Source: Bacteroidales bacterium (GTDB lineage Bacteria > Bacteroidota > Bacteroidia > Bacteroidales > UBA3663). Taken from it: a stretch of 64,000 nt of DNA. The position numbers were made by a program, and so were the translations under genes. Every line of letters starts with the position of its first letter. The stretch's first letter is position 1. The notes under the pieces were generated by a model. It saw nothing but the letters and a program-made list of their open reading frames with translations. It made no database searches and was not told where the DNA came from. Of this stretch, positions 1,299 through 33,097 are shown in pieces. The stretch lies in NCBI GenBank assembly GCA_017449065.1, contig JAFSKF010000019.1, forward strand, positions 56,952-120,951. The letters run 5' to 3'.

Positions 1299-4200
1299 AT
1301 GAAATTTGCAGAATATAACCAGTTCAATCTTTCGGACATCAATAAGGAGGTCCTGAAGAAGTGGGATGAGAATCAGGTATTCGATAAGTCGATGACAACG
1401 AGAGAGGGTCATCCGTCGTTTGTGTTTTATGAGGGTCCTCCGTCAGCCAATGGTATGCCGGGCATTCACCATGTGATGGCACGTTCGATTAAGGATATTT
1501 TCTGCCGTTTCAAAACTATGCAGGGATTCCAGGTGAAGCGCAAGGCCGGCTGGGATACCCATGGCTTGCCGGTGGAACTTGGCGTCGAGAAGATGCTGGG
1601 TATTACCAAAGAAGACATCGGTAAGAAAATTTCTGTAGATGATTACAATGCAGCCTGCCGCAAGGAGGTGATGAAATATACTAAAGAATGGACAGACCTG
1701 ACTCACAAGATGGGTTATTGGGTGGATCTGGAGAATCCTTACATTACTTACGACAACCGATATATCGAAACCCTCTGGTGGTTGCTGAAACAGCTTTACA
1801 ATAAGGGACTGCTTTATAAGGGTTATACCATTCAGCCTTATTCACCGGCTGCAGGTACGGGCCTTTCGAGTCATGAACTGAACCAGCCGGGTTGCTACCG
1901 CGATGTAAAGGATACGACAGTGACAGGCATCTTCAAGATGCTGGATCCGAAACCGGAAATGACCGAATGGGGTCAGCCGGTATTTGTGGCATGGACCACC
2001 ACCCCTTGGACTTTACCTTCGAATACGGCACTTTGCGTCGGTCCTAACATCGACTATGTGGCTGTCCAGACTTTTAATCCTTATAACGGCGACAAACTGA
2101 CCATCGTGATGGCTGAGGCCCGATTGAAGGCTTATTTGGCCGGCGAGGAATTGCAGACGTTGTCTGATATGGAGGCGCTCGATATCAATCAGGTGGATGG
2201 CAAGAAACTGCCTTACCGTATCGTGGGCCACTACAAGGGAACCGATCTGGTGGGTATGAAGTATGAACAGCTGATGAAGTGGGTAAAACCTTGTGAAAAG
2301 GTGGACGACCTGTCAGCTCCATATATAAATAAGTACGCGCAAGAGCACCCAGAGAAGGTGTTCGCATACGGACAGGATAAGTTTGTGGAAATTGCCGATC
2401 AGGCTTTCCGCGTCATTCCTGGCGATTACGTCACGACCGAAGACGGTACCGGTATCGTGCATATTGCACCGACGTTCGGTGCCGACGATGCTAAGGTGGC
2501 TAAGGCTGCTGAAGTGCCGGGGCTCTATATGATCAACCAATTGGGTGAAACTCGCCCAATGGTAGATATGACGGGTAAATACTACAAGCGTGAGGAACTG
2601 GCTCCTGCTTTTTTGGAGAAGTGCGTGGATCTGGATGCCTATAGTGTGCACGAGGGTAACTTTGTGAAGAATGCTTACGCACCGGAGTTCAATCAGAATG
2701 GCAAGTATGATGCTGAAGCTGCGTCGAAAGCCGATGACTTGAACGTAATTATGAGCTTGGAGATGAAGAAGGCTCATGAGGCGTTCAAGATCGAGAAGCA
2801 TGTGCACAACTATCCGCACTGTTGGCGTACTGACAAGCCTGTGCTATACTATCCTTTGGATAGCTGGTTCATCCGTTCAACGGCATGCCGCGAGCGCATG
2901 ATCGAACTCAACAAGACCATCAACTGGAAACCGAAATCGACGGGAACAGGACGTTTCGGTATGTGGTTGGAGAATCTGAACGACTGGAATCTTTCTCGTA
3001 GCCGTTACTGGGGCACTCCGCTTCCTATCTGGCGCAATCGCGACACACGCGAAGAAATCTGCATCGGTAGTGTGGAGGAACTCTACAATGAGATCGAAAA
3101 GTCTGTAGCTGCCGGTTTCATGACCAGTAATCCTTATAAGGATAAGGGATTTGTGCCTGGCAAGATGGAGAAGGAGAACTACGAGAAGATCGACCTTCAC
3201 CGTCCTTATGTGGATGACATCATTCTGGTTTCGCCAACGGGCAAACCAATGAAGCGAGAACTCGATTTGATTGACGTATGGTTTGATTCGGGTGCTATGC
3301 CCTATGCGCAGATTCACTATCCGTTCGAAAACAAGGATGCTTTCGATCAGCGGACCATTTATCCGGCTGACTTCATTGCTGAGGGCGTTGACCAGACGCG
3401 TGGCTGGTTCTTCACCTTGCATGCCTTGGGTACTATGATTTTCGACAGCGTGGCCTATAAGGCGGTTGTTTCGAACGGTCTGGTACTTGATAAGAACGGT
3501 CAGAAGATGTCGAAACGGTTGGGTAATGCCGTTGATCCGTTTGGCGCTATTGAGAAGTATGGTTCCGATCCGCTGCGCTGGTACATGGTAACGAATTCGT
3601 CGCCTTGGGATAACCTGAAGTTTGACCCGGAGGGTGTGGCTGAGGTTTCTCGCAAGTTCTTCGGTACATTGTTCAATACTTACAAGTTGTTTGCCTTGTA
3701 TGCCAATATTGATGGCTTTACAGGACAGGAAGCAGAGGTTGCGGTGGAGAAACGTCCGGAAATCGACCGTTGGATTCTCTCTTCTTTGAGCACCTTGGTG
3801 CAGGAGGTTGAGAAGAACTACGAAAACTACGAGCCGACTATTGCAGGCCGACTGATTGAGACCTTTGTATGCGACAATCTCTCGAATTGGTACGTGCGCC
3901 TGAACCGCAAGCGTTTCTGGGCTGGCACGCTGAACGAGGACAAACTGGCCGCTTATCAGACTTTATATACCTGCTTGGAGACTGTCGCCAAACTGATGGC
4001 TCCGATTGCTCCTTTCTATGCAGATAAACTCTTTACCGATCTGAATGCCGTTAGCGGACGTGATAAGAACGTAAGTGTGCACTTGTCAAACTTCCCGAAG
4101 GTGGGAGCTACCGATGCTGCCCTGGAACGCAAAATGCAGTTGGCACAGACCGTCACTTCGTTGGTGCTCTCCATCCGTAAGACCTCGAAGATCAACGTTC

Positions 4201-4905: not shown

Positions 4906-5283
4906 ATGGCAGACGATAAAGAAAGATACTCTGACGAGGAGTTGGCCGAGTTCAAAGTTCTCATCGAAGAGAAGTTGGCAAAAGCGCAGAGGGAATATGC
5001 AACTTTGCGTTCTACGATGCGTAACTCCGCCGATAATAGTGACAGGGATACTGCACCTATCTTCAAACTTGAAGAAGGAAACGACACTCTTACTCGTGAA
5101 GAGTTGGGTTTGCAGGCATCCCGTTTGGAGAAGTTTATCAAGGGCTTACAAGGCGCCTTAGTACGCATAGAGAATAAGACCTACGGAGTGGATCGTATCA
5201 CCGGAAAACTGATTCCAAAAGAGCGTCTTCGTGCCGTTCCTCATGCTACTTTGAGCGTTGAGTCGAAAGAGAAACGTCGTTAA
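4906..5283 (+). CDS. DksA/TraR-family regulator-like protein (no Cys4 zinc finger)
   Basis: 125 aa with a coiled-coil N-terminal half and the C-terminal motif LVRIENKTYGVDRITGKLIPKERLRAVPHATL, typical of DksA/TraR. The four zinc-finger cysteines are absent. It sits in the conserved position between ileS and lspA. Confidence 0.75.
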   Translation: MADDKERYSDEELAEFKVLIEEKLAKAQREYATLRSTMRNSADNSDRDTAPIFKLEEGNDTLTREELGLQASRLEKFIKGLQGALVRIENKTYGVDRITGKLIPKERLRAVPHATLSVESKEKRR

Positions 5284-26142: not shown

Positions 26143-26817
26143 ATGATGAAAGATAGTTATCTGTTTTGGCATCCTGCCGACTTGGAGCAGAAAGTCTTGG
26201 AGCTGGGTATGCTGCCTTTCTTCGAGAATGGTATTCCCGGCTTCAGTGTGGCCGAACATACGCCCAGCGAATTGTGGTTCAGCGATGAGGCGGACGGTCC
26301 TTGGGAATGGAAGGGACCGCTTATCCAGCTGGGACATTGTGCCTATGGCAAGTTCTTCAATCGGAAAGCCGGCTGGGTGTCGTTGGAGTGGTTGCCCGAC
26401 TTGCTGAATGTGCGTCGCGCTGCCTATCCTTTGCCTTCCGAAGATTCACAGCAGCCGGAGCGTCTGATTTACGAAGTGCTGACGATGGACCACGACGCCC
26501 TTTCGCGTGATTTGAAGCGGGAAGTGGGATTGGGCGGCATGAAACTCAAATCGACGTTCGAGAAATACATGGCAACTTTGCAGATGGGATTGTTTGCCTG
26601 CATTTCCGATTTCGAATATAACATTGACAAGCATGGTAACCGCTATGGTTGGGGCTTGGCACGTTATTCCACACCGGAAATGCTCTATGGAGCCGATTTC
26701 GTCCTCTCTGCCCAACGGGAACGCACGCCTGAAGAATCCTTCCAGCGTATCCTTACTCACATGCATCGGATCTTGCCCAATGCCTCAGAGAAGCAGTTGC
26801 TCAAACTGCTAAAATGA
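26143..26817 (+). CDS. conserved hypothetical protein, possibly AlkZ-related/YcaQ-like winged-helix
   Basis: 224 aa. The assignment rests on recollection of similar Bacteroidales proteins and no diagnostic motif was verified. Confidence 0.45.
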   Translation: MMKDSYLFWHPADLEQKVLELGMLPFFENGIPGFSVAEHTPSELWFSDEADGPWEWKGPLIQLGHCAYGKFFNRKAGWVSLEWLPDLLNVRRAAYPLPSEDSQQPERLIYEVLTMDHDALSRDLKREVGLGGMKLKSTFEKYMATLQMGLFACISDFEYNIDKHGNRYGWGLARYSTPEMLYGADFVLSAQRERTPEESFQRILTHMHRILPNASEKQLLKLLK

Positions 26818-26874
26818 AGGCAATGTGTTTACTCCCATAATGTGCTGTTTTTCGTAGCAAATATTGGCATTTTT

Positions 26875-26948
26875 CCAAAATCCCCAAATTTGCTGACTGA
26901 AGATTCATCTTTTAAGTAGTTTTTCTAATCAAGGGTCGCCGAGTGACT
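26875..26948 (+). repeat. imperfect direct repeat, copy A (upstream flank of the hip module)
   Basis: CCAAAATCCCCAAATTTGCTGACTGAAGATTCA... aligns with 28577-28641 (CCAGAATCACCATATTTGTTGATTGAAGATTCA...). Roughly three quarters of positions are identical by eye over the first 50 nt. Confidence 0.7.
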
Positions 26949-26963: not shown

Positions 26964-27098
26964 CGAAAATGTAATGTTTAAAATTGCAAATTGCATTAGA
27001 AAGCATACAATATAATTAAACTTTTGCAATTTTATATTCGAAACAATGTAATTTGAGAATAATTTTGTATTTTTGCATCCGAAATAATATAATTTAGC
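26964..27098. promoter_or_regulatory. three operator-like direct repeats CGAAA(n)AAT(G/A)TAAT(G/T)TT upstream of the HTH gene
   Basis: Copies are at 26964-26980, 27039-27056 and 27080-27098. The last lies between the -7 box and the ATG. Confidence 0.45.
27068..27075 (+). promoter_or_regulatory. candidate -7 promoter box TATTTTTG for the hip-like operon
   Basis: Matches TAnnTTTG, 24 nt upstream of the ATG at 27099. Confidence 0.45.
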
Positions 27099-27302
27099 AT
27101 GGAAAAAACAAAATTATCGTCAGTTGTTAAAGCTTTGCGCAAGGAATATGGGCTTACCCAAGAAGACCTTGCCATGAAATCGGGAGTCGGGTTGTGCTTT
27201 GTGCGCAATTTGGAACAAGGGAAAGTATCGCTCAGAATGGATAAAGTGAACCAACTCCTCGACTTGTTTAATTACGAACTGACCGCAACGAAAAAGGTAT
27301 GA
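27099..27302 (+). CDS. XRE-family HTH protein (HipB-like)
   Basis: 67 aa with the HTH pattern LRKEYGLTQEDLAMKSGVGLCFVRNLEQGK. Its stop overlaps the next start (ATGA). Confidence 0.85.
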   Translation: MEKTKLSSVVKALRKEYGLTQEDLAMKSGVGLCFVRNLEQGKVSLRMDKVNQLLDLFNYELTATKKV

Positions 27303-27634
27303 GACAAGCCAAGATATACCGCAAAGGCATTTTTGCCGGCATCCTAACAGAAGATGGTGGTGAATATCGCTTCCGTTATGACAGTATGTATCTTGCACAA
27401 GAAGAAGCATTGCCAGTAAGCCTGACTTTTCCGTTGCAAGAAGAAGAGTTCGTGAGTCCTATTCTTTTCCCGTTCTTCGACGGGTTGATACCTGAAGGCT
27501 GGTTGCTTGATGTTGTCTTACGTAATACAGACATCAGTATTCTTGATCGTATGTCTCTTTTACTATTGTGTTGCAAAGAGTGTATCGGCTCCGTCAGTGT
27601 CGTTCCAATAGCTAATATAGAAGGTGAAGCGTAA
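27299..27634 (+). CDS. HipA N-terminal-subdomain protein (HipS-like)
   Basis: 111 aa. AKIYRKGIFAGILTEDGGEYRFRYDSMY...FPFFDGLIPEGW matches the HipA N-terminal 'couple_hipA' pattern, here encoded as a separate gene. Confidence 0.8.
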   Translation: MRQAKIYRKGIFAGILTEDGGEYRFRYDSMYLAQEEALPVSLTFPLQEEEFVSPILFPFFDGLIPEGWLLDVVLRNTDISILDRMSLLLLCCKECIGSVSVVPIANIEGEA

Positions 27635-28572
27635 TGTGTAAGTGTTTGTACTGCTATCAGGAATTGGAAGAAGGTCAAAAGGACTTTCATCCTCAATGTG
27701 TCAAAAAGTTCTTTGGAACAAAAGAACTACCGCTATTGGAATACCGGCAAAAAGAACTCGACCGACTGGCTGAGCAAGTAATCCGCGCTCAGACTTCACT
27801 AACTGGTGTTCAGCCCAAATTATCATTGAATCTCTCCAAACATGAAGGTTGCAGCCGGTTGACGGTCGTAGGTCTATGGGGCGATTTTATCTTCAAACCA
27901 CAGACAGATGACTATCCACAGCTGCCAGAAAATGAAGATTTGACTATGCATTTGGCCGAAGCTGCCAAGATAAATGTCGTGCCTCATAGCCTTATCCGAT
28001 TGGCAGATGGGCAACTTGGTTACATCACCAAGCGAATCGATCGTACGCAAACCGGAGAAAAAATCGATATGGAAGACATGTGCCAACTGACACTACATCC
28101 CACAGAATACAAATATAAAGGTTCATACGAACAGATTGCTAAAACCATCGTTCAGTATTGCAGCACACCGAAACTCAACCTCACAAACTACATGCAGTTG
28201 CTGCTCTTCTGTTTTGTCTCTGGAAATAACGATATGCATCTGAAGAACTTCTCACTCTATCGGCCTTATAAAGATTATCTGCTGACTCCAGCATACAATC
28301 TTCTCAATGTAGCTATTGCCAATCCCAAGGACAAGGAGGAATTAGCTCTTCCGCTTTCAGGGCGGAAGACAAAGCTACGTTTAGAAGATTTCCTAAATGC
28401 AGCCAAAATAATGGGATTGGATGAAAATGTGGTTCTTCATCTCATCGCCGGTCTTCAAAAAGCTCTTCCTAAGTGGCAGGAGCTCATACATGCATCATTC
28501 TTGAGTGAGGATATGAAAAACAGGTATGAAGAGCTCGTCATATCCCGACTGTCGCGCTTGCAAACTCTGTAA
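27634..28572 (+). CDS. HipA-family Ser/Thr kinase-like protein lacking the N-terminal subdomain (HipT-like)
   Basis: 312 aa with the P-loop-like SLTGVQPKLSL and the catalytic loop GNNDMHLKNFSL. The next conserved motif reads LTPAYNLL rather than PxYD. The N-terminus has the Cys/His cluster CKCLYCYQ...HPQC. TAATG start coupling. Confidence 0.8.
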   Translation: MCKCLYCYQELEEGQKDFHPQCVKKFFGTKELPLLEYRQKELDRLAEQVIRAQTSLTGVQPKLSLNLSKHEGCSRLTVVGLWGDFIFKPQTDDYPQLPENEDLTMHLAEAAKINVVPHSLIRLADGQLGYITKRIDRTQTGEKIDMEDMCQLTLHPTEYKYKGSYEQIAKTIVQYCSTPKLNLTNYMQLLLFCFVSGNNDMHLKNFSLYRPYKDYLLTPAYNLLNVAIANPKDKEELALPLSGRKTKLRLEDFLNAAKIMGLDENVVLHLIAGLQKALPKWQELIHASFLSEDMKNRYEELVISRLSRLQTL

Positions 28573-28576
28573 AATT

Positions 28577-28641
28577 CCAGAATCACCATATTTGTTGATT
28601 GAAGATTCAAATTTGAAATAGTTATTTCCTATCGAGTGAGG
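28577..28641 (+). repeat. imperfect direct repeat, copy B (downstream flank of the hip module)
   Basis: See copy A. It starts 5 nt after the hipT-like stop codon. Confidence 0.7.
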
Positions 28642-28697: not shown

Positions 28698-29654
28698 TTA
28701 TCTATATTGAACTTCGTAGTGCCCTCCGTTACCACCACAGATAGTACATTTGCCGTTACCACCACATCTTGGACAGAGTCTGTCGTTATATCCCCATCCT
28801 GAACCATGACAATAGGTACATCTTCCTGGCTCAAACTGGCAACCGCCGCATGCTACCCACACTTGTACTGGGCCATGCTGCTCTACGACGACGGTTGTGG
28901 TTCCTCCGCTCTGTTGCTGTTGTTGTCCTGCATCAAGATTGTTCTGTGCTCCTTGACTCCGCCCTTCTGCCTCTGCCTGTGTCTCATGCCTATTGCCCTC
29001 CAGGGGGTTGTTAGTTGTGGTGAGGCGGCTCATGGCAAGGTCAAAAGCTGTACCGAAATCTTTTTGTTCCGCAGGCACAATGATTCTGCCATTGGCATCG
29101 GCAATACCACGATAGTGTTCTCCATTCTTTTTAACCATGAATGAGATAAAATAATGAACCTTCTCATTGATAATCATGGAACGGATAGAAATAGATAATA
29201 GGCTGTCAGCCTTTACAGAGACGACCTCCTTGCCGGTCCTGTCGCAGATGCCGCCGCCATCGGGTTTCTCAAAGGTGTAATACGTCCCAAACTCGTTATC
29301 ATCCCTTTTCTCAGTCCATGTATATCCCCTGCTATAGGGAATGACACACTTCCCACTTTTGCTGTACCACGCCCTAAATCCACCCTTCAAAGGTCCAAAT
29401 CCCTCCTCCAGCGGGTTTTCAGCAGAGCGATACCATATAAGATCATATTCCGTAGGGACTATCATGTTCCCATTGCGGTCTTCGGCTCCATACTTCTTCT
29501 GTCCATTGACGGTTCGCGTCACTTTATACCATTCAAAGCCGTCGTTCTCGACTATGTATTCTTTCTCTTGGGCAAAGGCCGCAGTGCCACTCATTCCTAA
29601 TGCCAGCACCAATAATAGTAATACTCTCTGTTTCATATTATTATCGGACTGCAA
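28698..29654 (-). CDS. exported WG-type-repeat protein with a C-terminal CxxCxGxG zinc-knuckle tail
   Basis: Signal peptide MKQRVLLLLVLALGMSGTAAFAQ. Three repeats follow (YGAEDRNGNMIVP, GICDRTGKEVVSV, GIADANGRIIVP), then a Q-rich linker and a tail with four CxxC pairs. Confidence 0.75.
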   Translation of the reverse strand: MQSDNNMKQRVLLLLVLALGMSGTAAFAQEKEYIVENDGFEWYKVTRTVNGQKKYGAEDRNGNMIVPTEYDLIWYRSAENPLEEGFGPLKGGFRAWYSKSGKCVIPYSRGYTWTEKRDDNEFGTYYTFEKPDGGGICDRTGKEVVSVKADSLLSISIRSMIINEKVHYFISFMVKKNGEHYRGIADANGRIIVPAEQKDFGTAFDLAMSRLTTTNNPLEGNRHETQAEAEGRSQGAQNNLDAGQQQQQSGGTTTVVVEQHGPVQVWVACGGCQFEPGRCTYCHGSGWGYNDRLCPRCGGNGKCTICGGNGGHYEVQYR

Positions 29655-29704
29655 TAATCATAAATACAAGTTTTGAGCTAAATCCATTTTAAAGATCTAA
29701 CACA

Positions 29705-30070
29705 TTACTTCTTAATGATATTACCACCGCCAAAAATTATGTTGATATTAATAATTGTTTCGGGGCTATGGTGGTTAGGGTCATATGGATTGTCGGAGTC
29801 TTCCGCATCATTTTTATTCTCTTTTTTAGTCTTGAATTTCCAAATTTCTTCTATAACGGCGGATATGATGGTTAGTATTTGTGGTAAATACTCCTTAAGA
29901 TTATCTATAGGAACATTTATACTGCCTTTTTCGACAGAAATTACACCATTGGCGTCTTGTGACGTGGTAATTAATACCTTAGAATCTCTTTCGGAGATTT
30001 CTATAGGCAAATATTTCTTTCCTCTCTTCATCTGTTTGATAACTTTGTTATCCTTTGCTTTTTGTTGCAT
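29705..30070 (-). CDS. hypothetical protein (121 aa, Lys-rich, no signal peptide)
   Basis: Co-oriented with its neighbours in the AT-rich operon. An antisense ORF (29715..30113) is also open, so coding-strand confidence is limited. Confidence 0.5.
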   Translation of the reverse strand: MQQKAKDNKVIKQMKRGKKYLPIEISERDSKVLITTSQDANGVISVEKGSINVPIDNLKEYLPQILTIISAVIEEIWKFKTKKENKNDAEDSDNPYDPNHHSPETIININIIFGGGNIIKK

Positions 30071-30133
30071 AATATTGAGTTTTAAGTTAGTTGAATTATA
30101 TTATACTGTTTGATAACGCAGGAGATGCAACAT

Positions 30134-30898
30134 TTAGTATTCTTGATACCCTCTTCCGTGACAGACGCTGCAAGTTACATGGCGGTGGAATGTTGTACTC
30201 CAGTATTCTGCGCCACATGTAGAGCATCTTTTCATGTAGCCACTGTTACCATAACTAGAGATTGAACCGTCATTTCTGACAATGCTGCCAGTACCGTGAC
30301 AGGCAGAGCAAGTGTGACGGGTTTTCTGTAGTTTGTCTCTTTCTGGACGATATGTGCTGCTGCCTGTGTTTCCACTTTGCCCACCATTATAAGTACCTCC
30401 ACCTGCATATCCACCTTGCGGATAAGTAGGAGGAACTGTATAGGACGGTGTATAACCACTTCCTCCACCACTTCCACCGCTTGATGGCTCTGGCTTGCGT
30501 ATAAGAGAACAAGTGGTTACGCCAGCGGGAGCCGTAGTACGCTTATAGACGTATATCTTCCCTGCATTCGTCTCAATGTTCATCACAGACTTGTCAGCAT
30601 TAAACTTCATATATGCATTCTTGCTCCAGTAGCACGAGCCCCAATAGGTTTTGAGTTGCTTACTGTTCTCCGCATCATACGACATCACTCCATTGCCAAC
30701 ATTATTCCCATACTTATCTGATTCAAAGCACTTATTTCCATCAAAGGTAATGAACTGTCCTCCACTCACATTAGTGTCATGCTTACCTTTGATAATGGAT
30801 TTTGTATACTGATAATAATAGGTTTGGGCATTGATGGTTTGCTCAAATACTATTAACAAAAGTAATGCAATACTAGATTTACTCATACATTGTTCCAC
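30134..30898 (-). CDS. exported protein with a Gly/Ser/Tyr-rich linker and a C-terminal CxxCxGxG zinc-knuckle tail
   Basis: Signal peptide (SSIALLLLIVFEQTINAQ). The N-terminal domain is homologous to the upstream 171-aa product. The tail is CSACHGTGS...CSTCG...CSVCHGRGY. The start may be the ATG at 30886. Confidence 0.75.
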   Translation of the reverse strand: MEQCMSKSSIALLLLIVFEQTINAQTYYYQYTKSIIKGKHDTNVSGGQFITFDGNKCFESDKYGNNVGNGVMSYDAENSKQLKTYWGSCYWSKNAYMKFNADKSVMNIETNAGKIYVYKRTTAPAGVTTCSLIRKPEPSSGGSGGGSGYTPSYTVPPTYPQGGYAGGGTYNGGQSGNTGSSTYRPERDKLQKTRHTCSACHGTGSIVRNDGSISSYGNSGYMKRCSTCGAEYWSTTFHRHVTCSVCHGRGYQEY

Positions 30899-31394
30899 TT
30901 GGGTTTCTTGAACGACCTAATTTGAAAAAACTCTTATCCACTCTTTTATATTTAATTACACCTGTCAAATTCGAAAAATCAAAAGATAAATAATGATACT
31001 CTGTCAGCATATTCCTATCTTTAGAAAATTTCCATATCATATGATTCTTTGAACCAGGAGCCCACTCGTAAGTAACTTCAGTTGAAGTAGATGAAATATA
31101 TTTAACAAGACTATAATCACGGGTTTCTGCATCTTCTACATAAAAATTGGAATTTTGACCGAGTTTCTTTTTTACATCAGTTATATAGTTTTCATACCAC
31201 CATACTCCATTGATTCCATCAAAATTAAGAATAAGGACTTCCGATCCATGATTATGCCCATGAGATTTATAATATCCGTTATCGTTTTCAAGAATATAGA
31301 AGCAGATGTCATCTGCACTGTCATAGAACTGAGCTTTCACTCCACTTGCAAGGCATATCGCCATGACAAGGAACAATAATCTTTTTGCTTTCAT
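30879..31394 (-). CDS. exported protein, paralogous to the N-terminal domain of the next gene
   Basis: Signal peptide MKAKRLLFLVMAICLASGVKAQ. It shares the motifs F(D)G, KF(S/N)xD(R/K) and YKR with the 254-aa product. Confidence 0.7.
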   Translation of the reverse strand: MKAKRLLFLVMAICLASGVKAQFYDSADDICFYILENDNGYYKSHGHNHGSEVLILNFDGINGVWWYENYITDVKKKLGQNSNFYVEDAETRDYSLVKYISSTSTEVTYEWAPGSKNHMIWKFSKDRNMLTEYHYLSFDFSNLTGVIKYKRVDKSFFKLGRSRNPSGTMYE

Positions 31395-31427
31395 AATCGT
31401 AATGTTTTTAAATTGTTAATAATGAGT

Positions 31428-31850
31428 TTATTCTTCCATATTATTATAAAGTTCTTCAAGCTTCTCCAATATAGGAGTGAACTTGTTTTCTATAATTCGA
31501 TTCACCTCGTTGCTCACTGTTTCGGTAAAGAACTTCATAAATTCTGGATCACCCTTTAGTTGTTTAAGAAATTCTTGGTAATCTATTCTTTGCGGTTTAG
31601 GATTATTCCACGTGTACCATGTTACAATAATGGATAACGCTGTCAATATCATCCCCATATTTTCCAGAGTTGCAACAAAATGTTGGTGCATACCTCCAGC
31701 ACCTATGTCTGGTATCACGGGAGGAAGTCCTTCTGAAATTCGGATTTCCATATTCTCCCTTTGCCTATGCGTAGTGGTCTCATACTCGTCAGGGAAAACA
31801 GACTCTGCTATTGTTTCTACTATTTCCCAGTTAATCTCTGATGTTTTCAT
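31428..31850 (-). CDS. hypothetical single-pass membrane protein (140 aa)
   Basis: Central hydrophobic segment MGMILTALSIIVTWYTW. Its start overlaps the stop of the protease gene by 4 nt. Confidence 0.6.
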   Translation of the reverse strand: MKTSEINWEIVETIAESVFPDEYETTTHRQRENMEIRISEGLPPVIPDIGAGGMHQHFVATLENMGMILTALSIIVTWYTWNNPKPQRIDYQEFLKQLKGDPEFMKFFTETVSNEVNRIIENKFTPILEKLEELYNNMEE

Positions 31851-33097
31851 ACCTCAACAAATTTTTTGTTAATGACGTTCTTTATATAGTCTGATTTAGC
31901 GATAACTGTACGTGCAGTTGTCCTCTTTATTATTACAACGAACAGCATCGGTATAATGCAAAGGAAAATGCACCACCATGGGAATTCAACGGCTTGGATT
32001 ACTTTGTCTGTTGCAAACCAAGCTACAAACATAAGTAACGGAAACACCAAATAGTACCAACCTGAGTTCCAAGTTGTAATCTTATCCTTAAAAGACTCTA
32101 TCCTTGGTGAATTCAATACTTGTTTTCTTACAATTTCAATTCTTTTTATTAATACTTTATTATCGGGATTATATTTCCTTTCAGAAACGAGACGCTCATT
32201 AAGTTTCGCAACGTATTTGTTCTTGTCATCTTCGCTCATAAAACGAGAAATGCTATATATCTCGTTCAACAAATAGCTATATTTACCATAATTCCTTAAT
32301 TGCTGGCTATCTAATATTTCAGCGATATACTTTTTGGCAAAAATCCTCGCCATTTTCCTCATTTTCTCTTTTCCGTAAAGGTGTTCAAATATCATGCAAG
32401 CCATTGCATCTGCCCCCATCTCAACTCTGGACTTTACATAGGCAGAGCTACAGATAATCATCAAAGCCATATATAATAGTAAACCCATAAATAGCAACCA
32501 CCATGAGTGGGACAGAACGGAAAAGATGACAATGATTAAGGAGAGAAGAGACGAATGTAATCTTGTAACAATTTGTCTCTGGCCAATTAAACTGTGTCCA
32601 ATGCAATGCGACATTTCGTGGAGCATTGTAAAGCGGTCGTTGTCTTCCTCTCCGTCAAAATCTTTATGAAGTAGAACAACTGATTCGTCATTGAAAAATG
32701 AATAAGATGTTGGCTCTCCACTTATAGCCTTACTAACATATACAGAAATATCTTTTGTTCCACACCTATTTCCCTCGTTATAAACCTTGAATTTTTGCAT
32801 TTCCTGCATATATAATTCTTTCAAGTTAGCATCTACGTCATCCAATTCAGAAAACAACAAGAAGTCGTGCCGCATTTCTGAGAATGTTTGTTTATATTTT
32901 AGCCATGCTGCATATACTAATATTGCGCCATCAAGACCAATACATAGCGGAAGTAGAAATGCGATAGAGTGGTTACTTACGGTCAATACTGCAATTATAA
33001 TAGATATGCAGAAAACGGACAAGACATTGTCCCACAAGGACGATAATTCATATAACATCCATTGAATCCAATTGTGAATAGTCTGTTGCATAATCAT
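31847..33097 (-). CDS. polytopic membrane zinc metalloprotease, M48/HtpX-like
   Basis: 416 aa. HEMSH (HExxH) is followed by two TM segments and then SRVEMGADAMA (an ExxAD third-ligand motif). There are two further hydrophobic segments at each end. Confidence 0.7.
   Translation of the reverse strand: MIMQQTIHNWIQWMLYELSSLWDNVLSVFCISIIIAVLTVSNHSIAFLLPLCIGLDGAILVYAAWLKYKQTFSEMRHDFLLFSELDDVDANLKELYMQEMQKFKVYNEGNRCGTKDISVYVSKAISGEPTSYSFFNDESVVLLHKDFDGEEDNDRFTMLHEMSHCIGHSLIGQRQIVTRLHSSLLSLIIVIFSVLSHSWWLLFMGLLLYMALMIICSSAYVKSRVEMGADAMACMIFEHLYGKEKMRKMARIFAKKYIAEILDSQQLRNYGKYSYLLNEIYSISRFMSEDDKNKYVAKLNERLVSERKYNPDNKVLIKRIEIVRKQVLNSPRIESFKDKITTWNSGWYYLVFPLLMFVAWFATDKVIQAVEFPWWCIFLCIIPMLFVVIIKRTTARTVIAKSDYIKNVINKKFVEV

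Follow-up and report, generated by a model that had tools for sequence, protein, structure and literature searches.

Three short overlapping genes in a Bacteroidales genome raise the question of whether they form a three-component HipBST toxin-antitoxin system, which characterised system they resemble, and whether their kinase can still act as a toxin. They lie in the 64-kb stretch of DNA that was analysed (the window), where they are arranged as follows.

27099–27302, + strand: hipB, 67-aa XRE/HTH protein, putative autorepressor, assigned by profile and PDB matches
27299–27634, + strand: hipS, 111-aa HipA N-subdomain-1 protein, putative antitoxin, assigned by profile and PDB matches
27634–28572, + strand: hipT, 312-aa core kinase of HipA type, lacking N-subdomain 1, assigned by profile, PDB matches and structural model

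Gene layout and relation to characterised Hip systems

The original prediction had described three translationally coupled genes for an XRE-type HTH protein, a detached HipA N-terminal subdomain and a kinase core lacking that subdomain, and both the layout and the assignments were borne out. The genes are adjacent and co-oriented in the order HTH protein, HipS, HipT; the hipB stop and hipS start overlap by 4 nt (ATGA), and the hipS stop and hipT start by 1 nt (TAATG). Each of the domain matches is far above chance expectation. HipB matched HTH_3 (E 5e-9) and, at 84.8 bits, exceeded the 71.65-bit cut-off of TIGR03070 (couple_hipB). Couple_hipA was found in HipS only (E 7.6e-23 over profile positions 2–98 of 99, with no other domain), which also scored 95.4 bits against TIGR03071, and HipT matched HipA_C (E 3.5e-44) with no Couple_hipA match. 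For each of the three proteins the best PDB match was the HipB, HipS or HipT chain of a solved HipBST complex: HipB(Lp) 8ezt_A for HipB (E 5.6e-8), and HipS(Lp) 7vkb_B for HipS (E 2e-14), which was followed by HI_0666 (E 3.6e-13) and E. coli HipS (E 1e-6).

Relatives of the locus were found in at least 590 species-level genomes. The B-S-T order and the tight junctions are kept in all of the approximately 78 related loci with upstream DNA, whose HipT proteins are 56–100% identical to that of the window; a 4-nt overlap joins hipB and hipS in 48 of the 78 loci, and hipS and hipT share 8 nt in 37 loci and a single nucleotide in 20. The single HipA polypeptide of HipBA systems, with N-subdomain 1 and kinase core in one chain, is represented here by two ORFs, and this holds family-wide.

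The 111-aa and 312-aa ORFs might instead be the halves of one hipA pseudogene, separated by a frameshift or an assembly error, a possibility that the original prediction had raised against itself. Uncharacterised single-chain relatives within the same HipT-like clade (for example P0139, P0146 and P0189; 427–457 aa) do carry Couple_hipA fused upstream of a Cys/His knuckle (see below) and HipA_C, with kinase cores 35–46% identical and the CxxC...HxxC pattern kept, so that split and fused states are interconvertible over evolution. However, the split recurs in the related loci across many genera, with junctions that vary and yet are always tight. In addition, HipT has its own ATG and a conserved N-terminal mini-domain homologous to that of the crystallised HipT proteins, and the identical sequence occurs in independent assemblies. 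The comparative data on related loci rule out a single frameshifted hipA, and a broken gene has next to no probability. Judged by architecture and homology, the locus is a genuine HipB-HipS-HipT three-gene toxin-antitoxin module.

The locus had been likened to the HipBST system of enteropathogenic E. coli. The tripartite, split-HipA reading held, with HipBST of Legionella pneumophila (Lpg2368–2370; PDB 7vkb, 7vkc, 7wcf and 8ezr–8ezt; Zhen 2022, Lin 2023) rather than that of E. coli as the nearest characterised relative. HipT matched Legionella HipT at E 4.5e-63 with 39–44% identity, compared with E 6e-18 and 25–27% for E. coli HipT, and its structural model (pLDDT 95.1) superposed on Legionella HipT with a TM score of 0.91 over 313 columns and on E. 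coli HipT with approximately 0.85. Gene order, overlapping genes and a HipT length of 312 aa are also shared with Legionella. By similarity of sequence and modelled structure, the locus is thus closer to Legionella than to E. coli and belongs to the HipBST-Lp subclade. This subclade is widespread in Bacteroidota and the FCB superphylum (Lin et al., 2023), and the locus is a further member of a group already reported to be common in Bacteroidota.

The E. coli O127:H6 system (PDB 7ab3–7ab5; Vang Nielsen 2019, Baerentsen 2023), whose HipT falls in a different subclade, is likewise tripartite, with an N-subdomain-1 HipS bearing a Glu/Trp wedge and a HipT mini-domain with which the N-terminus of the window HipT aligns. 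Its target TrpS is not transferable to the Legionella-type subclade, in which the HipT target is neither TrpS nor GltX (PMC10653801); an aminoacyl-tRNA synthetase target, which the original prediction had suggested looking for, cannot be assumed here. [quoted passage not shown] In HipBA the kinase polypeptide includes N-subdomain 1 and the antitoxin is HipB, whereas here the subdomain is separate and is the expected antitoxin.

In one respect the locus resembles E. coli more than Legionella.

27494–27502, + strand: HipS Glu66-Gly67-Trp68 (in PEGWL), with the E-x-W spacing of E. coli HipS Glu63/Trp65

In E. coli HipS, Glu63 and Trp65 form the wedge that keeps the Gly-rich loop out (PMC10627512). 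Legionella HipS has Ile65/Met66 in place of this E-x-W wedge and neutralises without the Trp, whereas Trp68 is present here and PEGWL is found in all 77 family HipS proteins that were scored. In these residues the family resembles E. coli HipS and not Legionella HipS.

Operator-like boxes upstream of hipB

The region upstream of hipB contains the following elements.

26991–27010, + strand: operator-like box 1, TTGCAT-N8-ATACAA, with palindromic half-sites and a GAAA core
27032–27051, + strand: operator-like box 2, TTATAT-N8-ATGTAA, from pattern match and conservation
27073–27092, + strand: operator-like box 3, TTGCAT-N8-ATATAA, promoter-proximal, its end 7 nt upstream of the hipB ATG
27068–27075, + strand: putative −7 promoter element of Bacteroidetes type, TAnnTTTG (TATTTTTG), which runs into the beginning of box 3

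The box pattern TTRYAT-N8-ATRYAA was derived from the window first and was then tested on other loci. It has three exact matches in the 64 kb, where none is expected, and these are spaced exactly 41 nt apart (20-nt boxes, 21-nt gaps). Among 79 distinct upstream regions from other loci, the 41-nt spacing recurred in 23 of 37 adjacent-box pairs, and box density was 5.7 per kb upstream of the genes versus 0.40 per kb elsewhere in the loci. The half-sites co-vary in these loci, pairing as TTATAT/ATATAA, TTACAT/ATGTAA and TTGTAC/GTATAA. The TAnnTTTG sequence at 27068–27075, which we take to be a −7 element by the Bacteroides promoter consensus, has the same position in almost every related upstream region. 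A scan for sigma-70 promoters and terminators returned fewer matches than shuffled sequences, sigma-70 being the wrong promoter type for Bacteroidetes. A perfect 12-nt inverted repeat, TAAAATTGCAAA / TTTGCAATTTTA (26979–26990 and 27023–27034), was also considered as an operator and was rejected, as it is confined to this species.

Palindromic, N8-spaced operators bound by an HTH repressor are also a feature of HipBA, for which the E. coli operator is TATCC-N8-GGATA. In Legionella, hipBST is preceded by three operators at even spacing, each with 6-nt inverted repeats, and O1 overlaps the promoter. The same arrangement is apparent here in the boxes at 26991, 27032 and 27073: three evenly spaced 6-nt inverted repeats with a conserved spacer, the proximal one lying on the putative promoter. 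The operators are unlike in sequence and dimensions, with 18-nt sites and 53-bp gaps in Legionella. We infer that HipB binds the three boxes as operators. Lin et al. report no Legionella-type operator motifs in the region that precedes E. coli hipBST. The boxes supply the Bacteroidales systems with a conserved architecture of three putative operators.

The active site of HipT and the Asn222 allele

The functional elements of the kinase core, placed by alignment and motif comparison, are listed here.

27793–27819, + strand: Gly-rich (P-) loop T54-S55-L56-T57-G58-V59-Q60-P61-K62, from alignments
28231–28248, + strand: catalytic loop D200-M-H202-L-K204-N205, intact, from motif and alignment comparison
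28297–28299, + strand: codon AAT for Asn222, at the near-invariant Asp that binds Mg2+ and the ATP γ-phosphate (GAT to AAT, one transition)

As expected of a HipBST kinase, both the phosphosite loop TSLTGVQPK and the catalytic D200-M-H-L-K-N205 are present. Ser55 aligns with E. coli Ser57 and Legionella Ser54, which are autophosphorylation sites (PMC10627512, PMC9325769), and Thr57 aligns with E. coli Ser59. The loop has two hydroxyl residues (S-L-T), as in E. coli (S-I-S), and so two possible phosphosites, whereas Legionella has S-V-Q.

In contrast, the Mg2+-binding Asp of HipA (D332), E. coli HipT (D233) and Legionella HipT (D219) is replaced in the window allele: Asn222 aligns with Legionella D219 and with D/Q233 of the E. 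coli crystal constructs. Asp occupies position 222 in 192 of 195 distinct family sequences (33–100% identity) and in 98 of 99 diverse representatives. A sister allele, P0002, in the same dnaE–AlkZ-rel context is 99% identical, differs at three residues and keeps Asp222. The two alleles are separated by six synonymous and three non-synonymous differences, and the other two non-synonymous states are also found elsewhere in the family. Since the Asn222 allele occurs in contigs from at least three samples, it is not a read error.

Mutation of the equivalent Asp in E. coli HipT abolishes toxicity, and D233Q is the inactive form that was crystallised; the published loss-of-toxicity substitutions are Ala and Gln, not Asn. 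By this comparison Asn222 speaks against activity of the window allele, not against homology. Because Asn replaces an essential Mg2+-binding Asp, HipT has probably been switched off, and the encoded kinase is probably catalytically dead, inactive or strongly attenuated; as Asn can still coordinate Mg2+ weakly, some residual activity may persist. The original prediction had proposed a toxicity test; a negative outcome is likely, and it would have nothing to do with the architecture. Neither stop codons nor frameshifts interrupt the genes, hipS and hipB are complete and hipT shows no further decay, so the change is recent or tolerated.

We assign a probability of roughly 0.72 to the reading that this is a chromosomal, Legionella-type HipBST type II toxin-antitoxin cassette whose toxin has been disabled by the Asp222-to-Asn change and whose remnant is still autoregulated. 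Its likely mechanism can be modelled on that of the systems studied in E. coli and Legionella. A single promoter would drive the translationally coupled hipB-hipS-hipT genes, and a HipB HTH dimer on the three palindromic operators, the proximal one over the −7 element, would repress the operon. HipS, as the detached HipA N-subdomain 1, would sit on the kinase N-lobe and keep the Gly-rich loop ejected, preventing ATP binding, here probably through a Glu66/Trp68 wedge as in E. coli. HipS rather than HipB would neutralise the toxin, with HipB augmenting the effect. Active HipT, when free, would stop growth by phosphorylating an essential target. With HipT dead or attenuated by Asn222, what remains would be a harmless module that still regulates itself and whose HipS and HipB could neutralise a homologous HipT that enters the cell.

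The same data bear on a fully functional module, in which Asn222 is tolerated and HipT is a toxic kinase with an ordinary role in addiction, persistence or stress. Such a module would fit the other catalytic motifs (D200, H202, K204, N205 and the Gly-rich loop), the undamaged and overlapping neighbouring genes and the recurrence of the allele in several samples. It is harder to square with the retention of Asp across so broad a range of identities and with the inactivity of the equivalent E. coli mutants, and we regard it as unlikely.

The Cys/His cluster, flanking repeats and possible spread of the cassette

Two further features concern the family as much as the locus.

27643–27699, + strand: C4-x2-C7-x11-H19-x2-C22, putative zinc knuckle of the mini-domain at the HipT N-terminus, from conservation and model
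26873–26924, no strand assigned: left member of an imperfect pair of 52-nt direct repeats, with 81% identity between the two
28575–28626, no strand assigned: right copy of the 52-nt direct repeat, beginning 2 nt past the hipT stop codon

The original prediction had pointed to a Cys/His cluster at the start of the kinase that enterobacterial proteins lack. MCKCLYCYQELEEGQKDFHPQC is indeed present at the HipT N-terminus, and three of the four conserved ligands are missing from E. coli O127 HipT; Cys2, which had been counted in, does not belong, being variable across the family (C/S/N/G/K/D). The C-C-H-C set is complete in 96 of 99 diverse homologs, and the three exceptions each lose two or three ligands together; C4 is invariant and C7, H19 and C22 are at least 90% conserved. 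From its conservation, the cluster is family-wide and not peculiar to this locus, and it is kept as strictly as catalytic residues. E. coli O127 HipT keeps one of the four ligands (position 7 is Leu, as read from a primer sequence, H19 is replaced by Ser and C22 by Gly), and Legionella HipT has C-T-S-G at these positions. Neither crystallised HipT thus has the full motif. The two systems that serve as structural models are atypical in missing a site kept by almost all diverse members.

In the model, CxxC forms a turn and H19 and C22 lie at the N-terminus of a helix (residues 20–27), with pLDDT 94–97 for residues 1–40. This arrangement, CxxC plus HxxC at a helix N-terminus in a treble-clef-like manner, suggests that C4-C7-H19-C22 is probably a zinc knuckle. 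The N-terminal 65 residues returned only an insignificant RING-H2 match from the PDB (E 0.68). No relevant publication on a zinc site in HipA or HipT came up in a literature search, and neither the HipBST papers surveyed nor the Hip phylogeny paper discuss zinc or cysteine for HipT. The motif adjoins the Gly-rich loop on its N-terminal side and, in the fused relatives, separates the HipS-like domain from the kinase.

The direct repeat brackets a 1.7-kb cassette, and eight other loci each have their own locus-specific flanking repeat; in two of these the repeat copies, 94–95 nt long, are near-identical. The locus had been placed in an island, a description that suits its low GC content, flanking repeat and species-specific, strain-variable location, less so the surroundings: no integrase, transposase or tRNA was found in or near the cassette, nor were mobility genes or tRNAs found anywhere in the 64-kb window. 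An empty site was sought in three ways. All contigs with an identical AlkZ-rel protein carry hipBST, and a metagenome scan with a left-flank 21-mer gave one chance match only. AlkZ-rel genes of sister species (75–79% identical) lie in neighbourhoods without hipBST that are rearranged and hence give no clean empty site. Such cassettes may land at gene 3' ends or at a tRNA 3' end and leave target duplications of 24–95 nt.

The genomic setting also invites a different main role, in anti-phage abortive infection or defence or, with a dead toxin, in anti-addiction through neutralisation by HipS and HipB of homologous HipT brought in on mobile elements, rather than as a stress or persistence switch. 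This proposal concerns the biological role and does not conflict with the molecular mechanism just described. It draws on the species-specific, low-GC, strain-variable and repeat-bracketed location, on weak similarity to the PADLOC candidate system PDC-M03A/B, and on speculation about phage defence for some Hip kinases (Gerdes et al., 2021). However, the PADLOC matches are marginal (E 3e-5 to 5e-4) and to an uncharacterised candidate, no phage or defence genes adjoin the cassette, and the HipBST papers surveyed give no experimental link to phage defence. A defence or anti-addiction role appears quite improbable as the main function.

Beyond the disabled-toxin reading, we tentatively consider a two-part proposal, which as a whole is unlikely to be correct: that the HipT mini-domain is a zinc knuckle in most of the family, lost in the two crystallised models and perhaps making HipS binding and release of the toxin sensitive to metal or redox state, and that hipBST spreads as a recombinase-free 1.6–1.9-kb cassette leaving target duplications. 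The HipBST papers surveyed describe neither feature of the family. If true, such spread would imply an unrecognised insertion route for toxin-antitoxin cassettes, and the flanking repeats prompt one to ask by what route minimal toxin-antitoxin units move. The Asp222 and Asn222 alleles, three residues apart, form a natural matched pair that would allow toxin activity to be compared in a Bacteroidales background from gut or rumen. The locus is ordinary in itself; its value is as a pointer to this allele pair, to the Cys/His site, to the operators and to the mobility of the cassette.

A split hipBST module with a Legionella-type kinase

Three genes make up the module, with the coordinates, sizes and strand that the original prediction had given them:

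27099–27302, + strand, hipB-like ORF, 67 aa
27299–27634, + strand, hipS-like ORF, 111 aa
27634–28572, + strand, hipT-like ORF, 312 aa

The gene overlaps can be read directly from the sequence, and both of the junctions proposed earlier, ATGA and TAATG, are present. Profile searches confirmed the expected domain content: HipB matched couple_hipB (TIGR03070, 84.8 bits against a curated cut-off of 71.65), HipS covered the entire Couple_hipA profile (E 7.6e-23) and contained no other domain, and HipT matched HipA_C (E 3.5e-44) without Couple_hipA. Comparison with solved structures bore out the HipBST reading, as HipB, HipS and HipT each had their counterpart in a HipBST complex as top match. HipT was closest to Legionella pneumophila HipT, which is also 312 aa long (E 4.5e-63), ahead of E. 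coli O127 HipT (E 6e-18), with HipA proteins in third place (about 1e-5). HipS matched Legionella HipS (2e-14), H. influenzae HI_0666 (3.6e-13) and E. coli HipS (1e-6), and HipB matched Legionella HipB (5.6e-8). An AlphaFold model of HipT, for which 99 diverse sequences served as input, was very confident (pLDDT 95.1, pTM 0.93) and superposed over its full length on free Legionella HipT (TM 0.91, rmsd 2.1 Å); it fitted E. coli HipT (TM about 0.85) and HipA (TM about 0.7) less well. According to Lin et al. (2023; PMC10653801), Legionella-type HipBST systems form a subclade of their own, apart from the E. coli type. The module belongs to this subclade, which that study had already found to be common in Bacteroidota, and is therefore a further example of a known system. 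Legionella HipT targets neither TrpS nor GltX (Lin et al., 2023), and for this subclade the aminoacyl-tRNA synthetase target suggested in the original prediction is a guess.

HipT relatives are widespread, with more than 8000 database clusters at E <1e-10 and at least 590 species-representative genomes encoding one, among them Segatella albensis DSM 11370 and Bacteroides nordii. The best 120 HipT-related clusters are all 309–328 aa long and carry HipA_C alone. Of 80 fetched loci, every one with upstream DNA shows hipB, hipS and hipT side by side and in this order, down to 56% HipT identity. The junctions are variable, yet always tight: hipS and hipT overlap by 8 nt in 37 loci and by 1 nt in 20, the remainder showing mostly small gaps, and hipB and hipS overlap by 4 nt in 48 loci and by 14 nt in 14. 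A single hipA split by a frameshift, the scenario set against the split-gene claim in the original prediction, is ruled out by this layout and these tight junctions across the fetched loci, so the split-gene claim stands. Fused single-chain relatives of 427–457 aa are a separate, minor state (approximately 12 of 150 representatives); eight of these HipT homologues (P0139, P0146, P0186, P0189, P0208, P0212, P0237 and P0251) were confirmed by Pfam to carry both Couple_hipA and HipA_C.

In E. coli HipS, Glu63 is directed into the active site and Trp65, which is required for neutralisation, lies under the ejected Gly-rich loop (PMC10627512). HipS in the window reads P-E66-G-W68-L, and PEGWL is common to 77/77 scored family members, unlike Legionella HipS, which has Ile65/Met66 at the wedge position. 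In the Bacteroidales systems, a kinase of the Legionella type is thus paired with a wedge of the E. coli type, where the equivalence of W68 and W65 is based on E-x-W spacing and alignment ranges and not on a residue-by-residue alignment.

The Cys/His cluster of HipT

The original prediction had singled out an N-terminal Cys/His cluster in HipT as lacking from the enterobacterial proteins. E. coli HipT indeed retains only C4 (N-terminus M-A-N-C-R-I-L, from primer sequence), with Ser in place of H19 and Gly in place of C22, but the cluster is not a peculiarity of this locus and instead represents the family norm. The pattern in the 80 loci is C-L-[YF]-C-Y-x11-H-x2-C-x-[KR]-[KR]-[FIM]-F-G, with Cys2 variable. 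In representatives that are 33–51% identical to the HipT of the window, C4 never varies, and C7, H19 and C22 are each conserved in at least 90%, as strictly as the catalytic residues. C-C-H-C is present in 96 of 99 HipT sequences; the three exceptions (C-T-S-G, C-T-D-A and C-S-H-G) have each lost two or three ligands together and have the appearance of abandoned metal sites. The Legionella HipT set is C-T-S-G (MKHCPITYEKISDQENYSQRG). Residues 1–40 of the HipT model have pLDDT values of 94–97; a turn flanked by two bridge residues holds the CxxC, and H19/C22 are at the N-terminus of helix 20–27, a placement consistent with a treble-clef arrangement. The family-wide motif is probably a zinc knuckle that is absent from both structural models of HipBST. 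The HipBST papers and the Hip phylogeny paper covered here contain no discussion of zinc or of the N-terminal cysteines of HipT, and a literature search for a zinc site in HipA or HipT gave nothing relevant. In the fused relatives, the motif is located at about residues 130–150, preceded by the HipS-like domain and followed by the kinase. One other homologue (P0263, 1387 aa) starts with a knuckle-bearing HipT-like kinase and also carries NACHT NTPase and FGE-sulfatase domains.

Operator-like boxes, flanking repeats and genomic setting

The cassette is surrounded by the following features:

26143–26817, AlkZ-rel gene (PF24741, E 5e-68) between dnaE and the hipBST cassette
26873–26924 and 28575–28626, 52-nt direct repeat (81% identity) bracketing the cassette, the right copy 2 nt after the hipT stop
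26991, 27032 and 27073, 20-nt operator-like boxes upstream of hipB, TTRYAT-NN-GAAA-NN-ATRYAA, exactly 41 nt apart
27068–27075, putative Bacteroidetes-type −7 element TAnnTTTG, within which the proximal box starts
28698–33097, − strand, low-GC block (0.34–0.40) encoding hypothetical secreted or lipoproteins

The three boxes are the sole exact matches to their pattern in 64 kb (0 expected), the pattern being derived from the window itself; the real test is provided by other loci. A looser palindrome scan of 79 distinct upstream regions gave the 41-nt spacing in 23 of 37 adjacent-box pairs and an 82-nt spacing in four, at a box density approximately 14-fold higher than in the remainder of the loci. 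The half-sites co-vary by lineage (TTATAT/ATATAA, TTACAT/ATGTAA, and TTGTAC or TTATAC/GTATAA). TAnnTTTG is the −7 promoter consensus of Bacteroidetes. Legionella hipBST has three evenly spaced operators, six-nucleotide inverted repeats with a conserved spacer, of which O1 overlaps the promoter, and the three-box array over the −7 element mirrors this layout. HipB would most naturally act as an autorepressor. A perfect 12-nt inverted repeat (TAAAATTGCAAA at 26979–26990 and TTTGCAATTTTA at 27023–27034) is also present, its left arm abutting box 1 and its right arm sharing 3 nt with the beginning of box 2; other hipBST promoters do not conserve this inverted repeat, which is limited to this species.

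Significant flanking direct repeats were detected in 10 of 74 distinct hipBST loci; as both alleles of the locus in the window are among these ten, the number of independent sites is nine. At each site, including the eight further ones (L071, L072, L035, L033, L061, L022, L014 and L049), the repeats are locus-specific in sequence and 24–95 nt long. The enclosed units of 1630–1943 nt contain only hipBST, with no recombinase inside, and it is common for the left copy to reach into the 3′ end of the upstream ORF. In L049, from a Bacteroidales MAG, the repeats (about 3222–3293 and 4991–5062) consist of the 3′ half of a tRNA-Arg(ccg) gene (5023–5099, − strand) plus 34 nt of flank, and only hipBST lies between the copies. 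Repetition of a tRNA 3′ end is a classic signature of integration there. The flanking repeats look like a target duplication around a minimal cassette without its own recombinase. No empty site, the proof of insertion, was found among contigs with an identical AlkZ-rel protein, in a metagenome scan or at the AlkZ-rel genes of sister species, and the likeness to a target duplication therefore remains an observation.

The proposal that the module resides in an island was upheld in part. The cassette has a GC content of 0.41 versus 0.51–0.52 in dnaE and AlkZ-rel, and the low-GC stretch that begins with it extends to about 33.5 kb. The block at 28698–33097 is strain-variable, with a 472-aa gene instead of five genes in three related loci (L084–L086, Asp-allele strains). 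AlkZ-rel, a recently defined family, adjoins hipBST in this species alone; sister species with 75–79% identical AlkZ-rel genes do not share its neighbourhood. There is no integrase, transposase or tRNA in or around the cassette. Two genes in the block (28698–29654 and 30134–30898, − strand) encode C-terminal DnaJ-like CxxCxGxG repeats.

A natural Asn222 allele of the toxin

The kinase of the window departs from its family at one catalytic position:

28297–28299, + strand, AAT codon for Asn222, at the HipT position of the Mg2+-binding Asp

Its PAYNLLN aligns with PAYDLLN of Legionella HipT, in which the Asp is D219 by chain count. In the E. coli crystal constructs, this column is Gln in the D233Q chain 7ab5_C and Asp in 7ab4_C, and substitution of D233 in E. 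coli HipT abolished toxicity (Zhen et al.). Asp occupies position 222 in 76/76 other scored loci, in all scored close homologues except one, in 98/99 diverse representatives and in 192/195 distinct family sequences. The sole other exceptions among the 195 are P0033 and P0067, homologues from a lineage approximately 85% identical to the HipT of the window that read PANNLLN; their loss of the Asp is an independent second event, which suggests recurrent natural inactivation of the toxin.

A sister allele, P0002, retains the Asp and is set apart by just three substitutions (Q39H, N222D and N255K), in the same GH2-dnaE-AlkZ-rel-hipBST context. The two alleles have six synonymous and three non-synonymous differences in hipT, one synonymous difference in hipS and one difference in hipB (T62A). 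The Asn222 allele is present on contigs of at least three samples and is therefore a real variant. The remaining active site is intact (D200, H202, K204, N205 and the Gly-rich loop TSLTGVQPK). We estimate a probability of roughly 70–75% that HipT of this strain is inactive or strongly attenuated; our confidence is limited by the conservative nature of an Asn replacement and by the published substitutions being Ala and Gln only. Inactivation is a frequent fate of chromosomal toxins. Alongside the probable zinc knuckle of the family, the conserved three-operator array and the repeat-bracketed hipBST cassettes, Asp222Asn is a point worth keeping, as a natural variant of the toxin for which a matched sister allele with Asp exists.
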